28,683 bases of DNA from Pachysolen tannophilus NRRL Y-2460 (lineage: Eukaryota): NCBI GenBank assembly GCA_001661245.1, contig KV454012.1, positions 186,001 to 214,683 of the forward strand. The letters run 5' to 3'. Positions within the stretch are counted from its first letter, which is position 1. Each line of letters begins with the position of its first letter. Shown here piece by piece: positions 8,386 through 22,727 of the stretch. The notes under the pieces were generated by a model. The model did not search any database. It had not been told where the DNA came from and was given only the letters and a program-made list of their open reading frames with translations. A program made the translations under genes and the position numbers.

Positions 8386-9483
<1,098 letters not shown>

Positions 9484-16861: not shown

Positions 16862-17821
16862 TTAAACACTGATTGGCTCTGAAACTGGAGTCTCTGTTAC
16901 TGGTGAGGTTGCATCCTGTGGGGTATTTTCACCAACGGTACGGCCAGAATGAACAGATGAATGGTAACTAAGATCTTTTGGTAAGACTTCTTTTTCAACA
17001 ATATTGGTTGGAAGAACTAAAGAAACATCTTCATCATCCTTTTTAACTAAAACAGTATGAACTAATGGAATAAATCCAAACAATACTACATCCAATATAC
17101 CGTAGAAGACAGCCTCTGAATCTGGTTGAATTACGTTACCACCTTCACAAAGACCCCATGAAACAAGATAACCAATCCAAACAACACCGGAGAATAATGT
17201 AAGAAATATTGTCCTAGCTGGAGCATCTGTAATCATAATTTGTCTATGACAAATTATACCAATACACAGGAAAGCTGCAGTTACTGCAAAGACAAAATAA
17301 CCCCATTTATAAGTCGATTTGATAAGTGCACCAATCAACAAAGCTAAGATAAATATTTCAGAAAGTAAAATTTGTGTAAAAAAATTTCCTAAAAATGAAA
17401 GATCAATTTGAATAGGAGAAGTATGAGAAACAGATTCAAATGTGAACAAAAGACTTGGCCAAGCTAAAAACCAACCAATGTATCTGGCATAGAAGATTTG
17501 TCTCTTACCTGGTGTCTCTGAAGAGTCACTAACTTTATCATTGTTAAATTCAGCTTGGATTCCTGTCCAACCCAAATCTGAAGCCAATGCAAAATAAGTA
17601 TAAAACAACGCAAGAGTGGCTAATAATGGAGCAAAATGCAATATTTTCTTCTTTTGCCATAATGGAGCAGTCAAATGAAATAAGACGAAGAATCCGAACA
17701 AAGAAAATGCTGCCCATAACCATGAACTACCATGAGATGTCAAATGAATATCAACACCAGTTGGTTCGTTAATAGAAACAGCTTGATTACCAGCTTTAAT
17801 AACACCGCTTATTGAAGACAT
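16862..17821 (-). CDS. Opsin-related 7-TM protein, Hsp30/Yro2/Mrh1 family, paralog 1, 319 aa
   Basis: GNQAVSIN..HLTSHGSSWLWAAF, LASDLGW, RQIFYARYIGWFLAWP, YKWGYF, WGLCEGGNVIQPDSEAVFYGILD. Confidence 0.9.
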   Translation of the reverse strand: MSSISGVIKAGNQAVSINEPTGVDIHLTSHGSSWLWAAFSLFGFFVLFHLTAPLWQKKKILHFAPLLATLALFYTYFALASDLGWTGIQAEFNNDKVSDSSETPGKRQIFYARYIGWFLAWPSLLFTFESVSHTSPIQIDLSFLGNFFTQILLSEIFILALLIGALIKSTYKWGYFVFAVTAAFLCIGIICHRQIMITDAPARTIFLTLFSGVVWIGYLVSWGLCEGGNVIQPDSEAVFYGILDVVLFGFIPLVHTVLVKKDDEDVSLVLPTNIVEKEVLPKDLSYHSSVHSGRTVGENTPQDATSPVTETPVSEPISV

Positions 17822-18963
17822 TTTATCAATATACTAATTATGTTTTACTAAACTTCTTTAAGAATAATTTAGTGAAAAAATATTAATTATAATAACTTAT
17901 AAAATGAAAAATTAAGAGAAATTTACGAGGTTTAAGTATCATTTCCAAGAGGTACTTAACTTTATAATCATGCTTTCCAGGAATCGAAAGAGTTCTGCTA
18001 AGTTAAGAATCTAAATTGCCGAACACAGTTTAAAAGAATAAAAATGAAAGAAAAAAGAAATAAGAAAATAAAAAAAAAAAAAAAAAAAAAAAAAAAATAA
18101 CGGATTAAGCGGTGTTCTGTATTCCATATAATAATGATAATGTTTGTATGTAATGACATGGACGGAACAAGGTAAAGGTCAACAAAAACACTTAGTTTAC
18201 CAAGTTAGGATAAAATCACTTGATTTACAGCTTATTTTGTTGTAAAATTGTAAGCATAATTAAATGTGAAATTGATGATCATTCCGGCAAAGGACGCAAA
18301 TTTTTATAAAACTTACTTTCTAGTTTTTTCTATTTTATTTCTCATGTCGCTATTTTTTAGTCCATATAGTCATTTCAAAGACTAACATATTTCTATAGTT
18401 TTCTTGTTTATGACGTAGAATATCTCTGACTAATGAATCCATTATTCCACCACATTCCGAATCTCTTTATTGGACAATTATTTTTACTTTTATCTATCTA
18501 TCACGACCAGTACAGTTTTACAATCTTACTAATTATTACATTTCCTCGATGCAAAAAAAATAATGGGAAGTGTAGTTTACAAGGATTCTTTTGAAAAAAA
18601 ATTGCACCCAAAGCTGTAATGGGTTTAATAATAATACTTAATCCATGGCCTGAAATAAACTGAAGGATTGTGCTGTGAAGGATGAATTATTACGTTTCTA
18701 TCTCATCATATGGTTTTTAAAACGCATCGGCCGGAAATCCCGTATAGTTAAATTACTTGCATGTAAGATCTATAATTTTCCTTTTTGGGAAACACTTACT
18801 TGCATCTGTAGGATATGGTAAATAATCGAAGCGCAAAATCATCACCTTTATAGAATACTATTATCTTGATAATTTGATAAATTGTTAATTTTTCAGTTAT
18901 TATTGAGGATCTTCGTTTATAAATTGAAAATTGATATTCCAAATTGTAGTAAGGTAGTTTTGC

Positions 18964-19410: not shown

Positions 19411-20340
19411 TTAAACTTGTTCAGCAACTTCATTACCGTCTTGGGTTTCCAGTTGAACTGCAGTTTCACCTGATTGTCTTGCTGCAGGAGCTTCTTCTTT
19501 CTTACCTTCTGGAGCTTCAGATGCAGCTTCTGGGTAAGTCAATTGATCATCTGTCTTTTCATTTAAAAACGATAAAGCTAATGGAACAAAACCAAATAAT
19601 AAGACATCCAAGACACCGTAGAAAGCAGCTTCTGAATCAACTTGGATGACATTACCACCTTCTGATAAACCCCAACAGATAGGATATAAGATCCATAACA
19701 ATGTGATAAAACTGAAAACAAGAACGTATTTAATTGGGGTTTTCAATTCAACCAAGAATCTATTGAAAATGATACCAATAGCAAATAATTGAGCAGCAAC
19801 TGCAAAAGTAAAGTAACCCCATTTATAAGTGGATTTGATTAAAATACCAATCAATAGACCTAAAACATAAATCTCAGTAGAACCAATTTCTAAGGCCAAT
19901 GATGATAAGGTCTTTAAATTATATTCCAAGTTACCCTGGTGAGCAACCAATTCTAAAGCATATAAAACACCAGGCCATGATAAGAACCAACCAATATATC
20001 TTGCATAGAATACTTGTCTAATACCTGGGGTTTCGGATTGATCTGAAGTAGTTACATGGTTAAATTCAGCTTCAATAGCTGTCCAACCTAAATTCGAAGC
20101 CATTGTGAAATAAACGTAAAACATAACAGAAGAGGCAATCAAAGGACCAACATGACTTAACTTCTTGGTCTTTCTAATTGGGAACATCACAGCATGATAT
20201 AATGCCAAGACACCAAAGACAGAGAAAGCAGCCCAGTACCAATCGGAACCGTGGCTTGTTAATCTGAAATCAACATCGGTGGCAGGATTAATGCTAACCG
20301 CTTGGTTACTCTTTTGAACTAATTCTGAAATAGCGACCAT
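19411..20340 (-). CDS. HSP30: Opsin-related 7-TM protein, Hsp30/Yro2/Mrh1 family, paralog 2, 309 aa
   Basis: NQAVSINP..LTSHGSDWYWAAF, MASNLGW, RQVFYARYIGWFLSWP, YKWGYF, LYPICWGLSEGGNVIQVDSEAAFYGVLD. Which family member it is orthologous to is uncertain. Confidence 0.85.
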   Translation of the reverse strand: MVAISELVQKSNQAVSINPATDVDFRLTSHGSDWYWAAFSVFGVLALYHAVMFPIRKTKKLSHVGPLIASSVMFYVYFTMASNLGWTAIEAEFNHVTTSDQSETPGIRQVFYARYIGWFLSWPGVLYALELVAHQGNLEYNLKTLSSLALEIGSTEIYVLGLLIGILIKSTYKWGYFTFAVAAQLFAIGIIFNRFLVELKTPIKYVLVFSFITLLWILYPICWGLSEGGNVIQVDSEAAFYGVLDVLLFGFVPLALSFLNEKTDDQLTYPEAASEAPEGKKEEAPAARQSGETAVQLETQDGNEVAEQV

Positions 20341-21386
20341 ATCTAATTTCTAATATCTAATTTCTAATTTTTTAGTTTTCTATTTTAAAAACTTGATCTA
20401 ATTATTATTAATATAGATATAAATTTTATCAATATTCAAATATTAATGATATTTATAAAATAATAAAAAATAAAAAAAATAAACCTAAATTCAAACGAAA
20501 GATGAAGCTACTTAAATATCATTTTCTCAACTTTAGCATTATTAATTCTAAACCATTCTAAACCATTCAAAATCGTGTTGATCATCAAAAATACCAAAAA
20601 CAAAACCGGGTTCCAGCGGTTGACCCTGCAGGAATATGTAGTTTATGTATAATATGTACGAGAATTACTGACAGGGACAAGCCGCGCGATGCGTTTTTTT
20701 TTTTTTTTTTTATTTTTTTTTTCTAAGTCTTTTTTAACAGTTTAACAACTAAAGAAAAAGAATTTCTGGAATTTTTTACGCACCAAAAGGGGAAACTTTT
20801 TTTTTAAAGTTTGAGCCAAAAATTTAAAAGAAAACTAACCCGTCGGACTAATGACCTCATTATCTTTGAATTTAGTACTAATTACCTCACTATTTGAAAC
20901 ATAATGCACTCATTAATTCCTGTAATTTCTAATGTTCTAAAGTTGCCTCACGTATTAGTAACATGGTGCGATTTGGTTCCGTTAATCAATCGCCGTTAAT
21001 ATTCTTGGAACACTCTAGAAAATTTTTACTCTTTATAAAATGGCAGAATACTCTGGAAAAATCTAGGGCAAAAAGATCCGCGTAGTAATTTTAATTTTAG
21101 TTTCAAAACTAATAATTTTTATTTTTGTACGTGTACGTACGGTTAAACTTAAGTAGAAGAGAAATAAAAAAAAAGCGTGATCTCTTGTCTCATCTATCCT
21201 GGAATAAACTCCGCACAATCCGAGATCCAGATTTTCGTAACAAAGGGGGAAACAAGGTGTACGACAAAAGACTAAACTAACTGTAAAGATTAAGTTAAGT
21301 AATTAAATTAATTAATTTAATTAATATTATTAATTTAATTTAGTTTCATTTGATTTACTAATCAATCAAGGTAGGATTGCTTTAAC

Positions 21387-22727
21387 ATGATCAGCTATGG
21401 TTTGACCAATAATAATAACAATGGCGTCGAATCAGTTCAAGTTCGAAAATTTTCTTCGTCTAAGGAGTCAATTCCAACCGCGCTTTATGGCGATAATTTG
21501 TCAATTTTGAATTCCACAAAATCCTACAACAGTAATAATAATAATACTTGGAATCATTTCCCTTATAAAAACTCAATCTCGATCAATTTTATTCCATTAC
21601 AAAATGCTTTTGGATCCAATGGCGCTTTAAGCGCCATTGGTATCATGGATAATTTACCCCATGTTCCAAATTGTAAGATAAAAATTTTATGGAAAACCAC
21701 TGTTTTGGTTTGTATTACCCTCACGACTTTATTCATTTAATTTTATGATATAAAGATAATTAATTGATCTTTTTAACTAACCGATATAACGCGCGTATAC
21801 TAATTAAATTACCTGCAGGAAGATATAAACGTTCCTGAATTGTACGCAAAGTTTAAAGCTTTGAATAACGATAATTCACCTCCTTGTATTGCTGTCTGCA
21901 AGTGTCCATCAATCGGATTCAAATATTTACATAATAGTTTAAATAATGATGGTTCCACAACGCCAACACCCACAACACCAACGGTTAGAAGGTTTCAATT
22001 GAGTTTCCCTAATAAGGCTGAATATTCTAAATGTGTCTTAGCATTTAAGAAAAATAATTTCTTAGTTAAGGAAGTTCCGGAGAATAATGGATTTTGTTCT
22101 CAACAACAAAATTTTAATGAATCTTACCAACAAATGACGACAACTATGTCAACAATGTCTCAAAATCCGCCACAATCACAATCTCAATGGCAAATTTTCG
22201 ATCCTAATAATAATAATCAATCACAAGAAGAAGATCTTTTAATTAGTCAATGGTTACATAATAGATATGGCGGACCAGATACGGACCAAATTCAAAATTC
22301 ACGTAACCAAAGATTTAAAATTAACTGTCCGATCGATATGTCCCGACAATTACAACTGCCGTTACAACTGCCATTACAACTGCCCTTACCAAATTCTGCA
22401 CCTATTGCTGCTGATCTTGCTGCGGCATCTGTGCCTGTCCCCGCTGCCCCCGCTGCCCCCGCCGTACCCCAACTTCCTATTGATCTGGAGGTTTCGGAGG
22501 TCTCGGAAGTTCCAACTACAACCCCAGCAGCAATAAATAACGTCAAAGTAAATGCTATTTCAACAGAACTTAGCCCACAAAAAAGAAGAAAATTAGATGA
22601 CACGAAAATTAATTTTAATGATGAAAAAGAATTAGAAAATTATATATTGGAAACATTGAAAAATGAAGAATTTGTTTTATTTCTGAAAAAAATTGATGCA
22701 ATTGTGCTTAAAATGACAAGAAACTAA
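21387..22727 (+). CDS. REC114: Meiotic double-strand-break protein Rec114/Rec7; join(21387..21707,21819..22727), 409 aa
   Basis: Two track ORFs join in phase 0 to give KIKILWKTTVL|EDINVP. PH-domain motifs KFS, WNH, CPSIGFKY, VRRFQLSF; C-terminal helix LENYILETLKNEEFVLF.KKIDAIV typical of Rec114; near GID8-ERG29 as in S. cerevisiae. Confidence 0.8.
21708..21818 (+). other. Predicted spliceosomal intron of REC114 (111 nt, non-consensus donor)
   Basis: GTTTGT donor at 21708; branch candidates AACTAAC 21775-21781 and TACTAAT 21798-21804; first downstream AG is the CAG ending at 21818; removal restores the frame. Confidence 0.75.

Follow-up and report, generated by a model that had tools for sequence, protein, structure and literature searches.

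The window analysed here, a stretch of 28,683 nt of the genome of the yeast Pachysolen tannophilus (G000:C2:186001-214683), contains a REC114 gene that appears to be interrupted after 107 codons by a short intron, with a non-consensus donor and, directly behind it, an element resembling the Mer1 enhancer of S. cerevisiae. This raises the question of whether splicing of REC114 is under meiotic control in this organism, and whether it is so alone or as one of a set of genes. In budding yeast, Mer1 is the example that textbooks give of splicing under developmental control. The literature consulted names four targets, in S. cerevisiae only (MER2/REC107, MER3/HFM1, SPO22/ZIP4 and AMA1), and give the enhancer there as AYACCCUY (PMC3082912). 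The features of the locus, in window coordinates, are as follows:

21387..21707, plus strand: REC114 exon 1, starting with ATG, 107 codons, encoding the first half of the Rec114 N-terminal domain (PF03525, E 9.6e-08)
21708..21818, plus strand: REC114 intron, 111 nt, phase 0, its ends inferred from the reading frame, the splice signals and the continuity of the Pfam match
21708..21713, plus strand: non-consensus donor GTTTGT, with 4/6 Watson-Crick pairs to the organism's own U1 5' end over +1..+6
21714..21722, plus strand: ATTACCCTC, likely Mer1 enhancer, intron positions +7..+15
21738..21740, plus strand: in-frame TAA, ending the unspliced product at 117 aa
21775..21781, plus strand: branch-point candidate AACTAAC
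21798..21804, plus strand: branch-point candidate TACTAAT
21816..21818, plus strand: acceptor CAG, the first AG past both branch candidates
21819..22727, plus strand: REC114 exon 2, 302 codons and stop (PF03525, E 4.9e-15, model positions 62-132)

Both exons match PF03525 (Meiotic_rec114) above its cut-off, at 32.7 and 56.3 bits, and exon 2 enters the model at position 62, where codon 107 of exon 1 stops; a phase-0 join onto the CAG at 21816-21818 gives a single frame of 409 aa. The junction 21707/21819 is placed from this frame, the Pfam match and the splice signals. The first-pass annotation had described the donor as GTTTGT, unlike the GTAAGT donors of TUB2, with a motif 7 nt inside the intron matching AYACCCUY at seven of eight positions and a stop at 21740 that would leave an unspliced product of 117 aa. 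All of this stands: both TUB2 donors are GTAAGT, TTACCCTC lies at 21715-21722 with 7 intron bases ahead of it and its CCC intact, and reading the frame through the intron gives the same stop and length. (The label "PH domain" for the truncated part is that annotation's own.) The intron also contains ACGCGCGT, an MCB/CGCG-like word, at 21789-21796, between the two branch candidates.

Translation table 26 was used because CTG is found at the conserved alanine of a MAP kinase TEYV-x-TRWYR motif (window 8386-9483), as fits CUG = Ala. Elsewhere in the window, two tandem paralogs on the minus strand (16862-17833 and 19411-20349) encode an opsin-like membrane protein, presumably, from the translations, of the Hsp30/Yro2 type.

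In a search of the whole genome, GTNNNNWTTACCCTY gave 18 matches versus 57 for its reversed control, and a lone motif near a GT is no more frequent than chance; the placement of the intron-type matches does exceed chance. All 18 matches were examined, and four of them, in REC114, SPO22, MYO1 and a MutS gene, have a frame-compatible donor. Relaxing the pattern and leaving its offset free brought in no further introns (30/30 matches examined), a wider one added REC102 (39/40 examined), and further widening added none (27/27, 40/41, 34/39 and 3/4 examined). The intron filter used can miss UTR introns and those next to short exons, and its coverage of other offsets was only partial. The four known S. 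cerevisiae Mer1 targets were fetched by Pfam family, with SPO22, HFM1 and AMA1 chosen beforehand. The intron-type matches are those of six meiotic genes and MYO1.

The octamer ATTACCCT stands at intron position +7 with no mismatch in REC114, SPO22 and MSH5 intron 2, with one in HFM1 and REC102, and with two in AMA1. MSH5 intron 2 is identical to the REC114 intron over 15 nt, including ATTACCCTC; the phase-1 intron of SPO22 opens with GTATTT ATTACCCTT, that of HFM1 with GTAGTT ATTACCTTA, that of REC102 (a gene recognised by PF21736) with GTATGA ATTACCTTA, and the 72-nt, stop-containing intron of AMA1 with GTAAAG TTTACTCTA. Three of the four known S. cerevisiae targets thus carry the signal here (SPO22, HFM1/MER3 and AMA1). 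All six introns have T as the first base of the motif, against A in the S. cerevisiae consensus. The ACCCT core of the element occupies +10..+14, adjacent to the U1 footprint. The degenerate form WTTACYYT was fixed after HFM1 and AMA1 had been seen. Products of intron retention would be 117 aa long for REC114, 52 for REC102, 38 for SPO22, 32 for HFM1 and 428 for AMA1.

HFM1 and AMA1 were separated from their paralogs by length and layout, in part on features that we assume to be diagnostic. The genome has six MutS genes; the one with the signal has the MSH5 motif and is taken to be that gene, and another has the MSH4 form. A PDB search on the MutS paralog brought up neither an Msh4 nor an Msh5 entry. 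MSH5 intron 2 was read by hand, since its branch site, TATTAAC, and the shortness of the following exon put it beyond the script; it has a single AG at its 3' end, in frame with the GTTTGT donor. A metagenome scan with MSH5 for related species returned bacterial MutS at 7/7 loci and no eukaryotic relative. In an MSH6-like gene the MutS V domain is split over opposite strands (G000:C2:116985-117815), reflecting either a local inversion or an assembly error.

For comparison, 39 control introns, all chosen for their consensus donors, were predicted by script in 108 genome stretches (1.06 Mb), five stretches placed on pattern matches being excluded from the sampling, and 16 more were read by eye: eight in DMC1, four in HOP2, introns 1 and 3 of MSH5, and one each in MND1 and the MER1-like gene described below. 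At +7, all 55 differ from ATTACCCT in at least four bases. At any one position, agreement with no mismatch has a chance of 8.8e-6, with up to one of 3.9e-4 and with up to two of 4.6e-3, and the joint chance for the three pre-chosen genes is very small, even with the motif having been broadened afterwards. The eight introns of DMC1 (locus G000:C6:618600-620900) and four of HOP2 are a large number by budding-yeast standards, and consensus donors are found in all of them except one.

These figures bear on whether REC114 itself belongs to the set. The regulon might be real for SPO22, HFM1 and AMA1 and yet not extend to REC114, either through use of another GT donor or through a coincidental motif. 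Other in-frame joins do exist in REC114, chief among them GTATTA (21712) to AAG (21822), which likewise gives 409 aa; splicing of S. cerevisiae REC114 is nearly Nam8-independent (87% vs 76%), as is that of REC102; and the junction has no match in the public protein records searched, where an exact look-up of five partial Rec114 products found none on record and a protein search with residues 1-100 of exon 2 led to none of 20 candidates being accepted as relatives. The alternative join, however, uses an AAG downstream of a CAG, the 15 nt shared with MSH5 intron 2 stand there in an intron whose single AG fits GTTTGT in frame, and an exact octamer at the fixed position has a chance of only 8.8e-6. 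We therefore consider exclusion of REC114 from the set improbable.

A switch of the Mer1 kind calls for a non-consensus donor, and by the first-pass annotation GTTTGT should then not be a common donor in this genome. U1 and U6 are canonical here, and all six donors pair with U1 at 4/6 positions. GTTTGT shows no excess ahead of TACTAAC (53 vs 96 in the control), GTAAGT in the same setting is enriched (255 vs 98), and none of 30 examined GTTTGT matches requires it as donor; it is thus a rare donor, which speaks in favour of the switch. Among 33 acceptor-anchored candidates, 25 have a consensus donor and eight have none, though several of these eight resemble false anchors. An estimate of donor use from hexamer excess (8 vs 2.5 for GTTTGT) was dropped as too noisy, most hexamers, donor-like or not, being about threefold above control. 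The one apparent GTTTGT donor among the acceptor-anchored candidates, in RPS6, was rejected, the true ATGAAG|GTATGT donor sitting further upstream. The REC102 donor, GTATGA, also serves HOP2 intron 2 and MND1 with no motif beside it, and so may not be weak.

Such donors might also be helped by the +7 signal directly, with no meiotic factor involved and splicing either constitutive or controlled by structure. An AT at +7/+8 would lengthen pairing with U1, and an ATT at +7..+9 pairing with U6, the canonical snRNAs being complementary to these positions, and AT at +7/+8 is found in 5/6 targets versus 9/55 controls; the signal, moreover, resembles the U1 5' end and could fold back on the donor, a donor-motif hairpin being predicted in SPO22 (p 0.97) and MYO1 (p 1.0). 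Yet neither U1 nor U6 pairs with the ACCCT core at +10..+14, no such hairpin is predicted in REC114, MSH5, REC102 and HFM1 (p 0.02-0.06) or in AMA1 (0.22), and folding of the REC114 intron is unremarkable (z -0.39). Help of this kind would also leave the meiotic bias of the intron matches unexplained, and we regard it as an unlikely account of the signal. In MYO1, the one non-meiotic gene, a one-mismatch copy, TTTACCCTT, follows an in-frame GTAATG (G000:C7:836579-836593, minus strand), and a consensus GTAAGT lies 24 nt upstream of GTAATG in the same phase; TTTACCCTT is predicted to fold back on GTAATG and may there mask a decoy donor.

A Mer1-dependent switch further presupposes a Mer1, which the first-pass annotation had also made a test of its idea, and the genome does encode a likely counterpart, again in the idea's favour. 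It has 18 KH matches, one of which is the 321-aa protein P0001, with a single C-terminal KH domain:

L012:1462-2613, minus strand: MER1-like gene (P0001; PACTADRAFT_80097)

Residues R255, R260, K268 and Q289 of P0001 have spacing identical to that of R209, R214, K222 and Q243 of S. cerevisiae Mer1. That protein is 270 aa long, its KH domain is likewise C-terminal, and tests of all four residues there found R214 and Q243 essential (PMC3082912). The P0001 gene is the immediate upstream neighbour of SSB and shares its strand, just as MER1 (YNL210W) adjoins SSB2 (YNL209W) in S. cerevisiae, and this pair is flanked by a tyrosine-phosphatase gene on one side and, beyond SSB, by a RIO kinase gene. 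(In S. cerevisiae, PTP1 neighbours SSB1 and RIO2 is near SSB2.) Relatives with an equal layout are found in Wickerhamomyces mucosus and [Candida] anglica. None of them bears the name Mer1, and looking for a relative that does gave only unnamed or hypothetical KH proteins. The best Atlas match of P0001 (0.82) is a lead only, its AlphaFold model is poor beyond the KH part of the protein (mean pLDDT 46), and Foldseek returned generic KH matches. The MER1-like gene has introns, the first of which, per the public protein record, is 87 nt long with a GTGAGT donor; these 87 nt are in frame and stop-free with no clear branch point, and may instead be coding. From synteny, architecture and the four residues, P0001 is likely the Mer1 orthologue. 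Syntenic MER1 homologs have been described in the Phaffomycetaceae, Ascoideaceae and Saccharomycopsidaceae (PMC8567612), and KH domains similar to that of Mer1 in Debaryomyces hansenii and Pichia pastoris (PMC8567612; PMC3082912, Fig. 5), so that a homolog in Pachysolen, which is absent from 11 supplementary files of PMC8567612, is unsurprising.

P0001 has one oddity: compared with all seven aligned relatives, its GXXG loop lacks one residue, and this may impair RNA binding. The regulon could accordingly be a relic, its signals inherited, its KH protein no longer binding RNA and its introns weakly spliced without it; the deletion in the loop and the low identity to relatives (22-28%) would both fit. 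Without selection it would nonetheless be hard to maintain exact copies of the motif at one constant offset in three genes that are not related, or an intact frame in which R260 and Q289 are kept, and a relic of this kind seems to us rather unlikely.

The REC114 intron is thus, quite probably, a Mer1-dependent meiotic splicing switch. In vegetative cells, poor pairing of U1 with GTTTGT would leave the intron in place, and only the 117-aa stub would be made. In meiosis, by analogy with S. cerevisiae, the Mer1 orthologue would be induced, its KH domain would bind the ACCCU core, and U1 would be stabilised together with Nam8, so that the intron would be removed and full-length Rec114 produced. 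The first-pass annotation had placed such control on REC114; that much is supported, but the proposal was too narrow, the same signal recurring at the same offset in five more meiotic genes. Judged from sequence, a meiosis-only switch is likely present here with a target set partly different from that of S. cerevisiae.

Transcription of several of these genes appears to be marked by a second signal. The palindrome ACAACAT-N5-ATGTTGT (TACAACAT-N5-ATGTTGTA) has 20 sites in the genome and none in the control. It lies 96-177 nt before the ATG of MER2, MSH4, MSH5, HFM1, DMC1, HOP2 and MND1, and one copy is within the SPO22 intron (C7:589758). Of the remaining 12 sites, one is ahead of a HORMA gene and one ahead of an FHA-domain gene, likely HOP1 and MEK1 respectively; at the other ten, Pfam named no meiotic gene. 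Sites include:

C6:618742: palindrome, DMC1
C1:2197417: palindrome, MER2
C7:692544: palindrome, HORMA gene

Allowing a looser match raises the number of sites to 29 (control 4) and brings in the MER1-like gene, with a variant at C3:624751, 180 nt before it, which fits meiotic expression of that gene. The palindrome is thereby common to DMC1, HOP2, MND1, MSH4, MSH5, HFM1, MER2, the MER1-like gene and the likely HOP1, and is absent within 500 nt of the ATG at REC114, REC102 and AMA1 (best 4, 5 and 6 mismatches). It is likely an early-meiotic transcription-factor site and points to such a factor, though nothing relevant to it was found in the literature searched.

MER2 is a single 401-aa open frame across its PF09074 match, and therefore has no coding intron there. 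An intron in its 5' UTR, starting from GTATTTTACCTCT before the ATG, was considered and is unsupported, no branch-point match being found up to the ATG; GTATTTTACCTCT itself lies about 90 nt upstream of the ATG, just past a TATA-like word, and resembles a weak donor plus motif offset by two bases. For MEI4, the third subunit of the Rec114-Mei4-Mer2 complex, the genome has no PF13971 match, which does not imply that the gene is absent. The S. cerevisiae MER2 gene, whose donor is GUUCGU, is already transcribed during vegetative growth, with splicing as its gate, so that the two layers of control look as if they had been swapped in Pachysolen: intronless MER2 would be under the palindrome, and REC114 and REC102, which have no palindrome, would be gated only by Mer1 splicing. 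We offer this tentatively, as somewhat short of an even chance. If true, the licence for DNA-break formation would come from splicing of Rec114 and Rec102 rather than of Mer2, an unchanged logic applied to other subunits, and the early-meiotic transcription signal would be unlike URS1.

Mer1 targets outside S. cerevisiae, and these Pachysolen introns in particular, were not found in the literature searched. Published MER1 homologs outside the Saccharomycetaceae are presented, in the passages of PMC8567612 on them, as genes, with neither enhancer nor targets. Should the present reading hold, the code of enhancer plus weak donor would date at least to the split of Saccharomyces and this CUG-Ala yeast, and the target list would shift in evolution with the same processes still covered: break formation (by Mer2 in Saccharomyces, by Rec114 and Rec102 in Pachysolen), the formation of crossovers (Mer3 and Zip4, joined here by Msh5) and the meiotic APC activator. 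The fixed spacing beside the U1 footprint would also offer a handle on the contact between Mer1 and U1, the mode of which is called unknown in a 2024 review (PMC11585973).

In several respects the Pachysolen set looks much like the S. cerevisiae regulon: non-consensus donors with a YACCCUY-type element nearby, three of the four targets, truncation on intron retention (32-428 aa) and a protein with a single C-terminal KH domain encoded beside SSB. The variant elements fall in with this as well, that of HFM1 and REC102 being CCU and that of AMA1 CUC, the forms with which S. cerevisiae SPO22 still responds fully to Mer1 (89% and 85%; PMC3082912). There are also differences. The element lies at a fixed +7, with its core at +10..+14, whereas one review places the enhancer 18-25 nt from the donor (PMC11585973). 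Its first base is T in place of A, the KH loop lacks a residue, and introns interrupt the MER1-like gene itself. No coding intron is seen in MER2, and the signal is carried by REC114, REC102 and MSH5; S. cerevisiae MSH5 is not known to carry an intron, and the REC114 intron of that yeast lies near the 3' end of the gene. Compared with that regulon, then, the Pachysolen set shares SPO22, HFM1 and AMA1, is without MER2, and also includes REC114, REC102 and MSH5.
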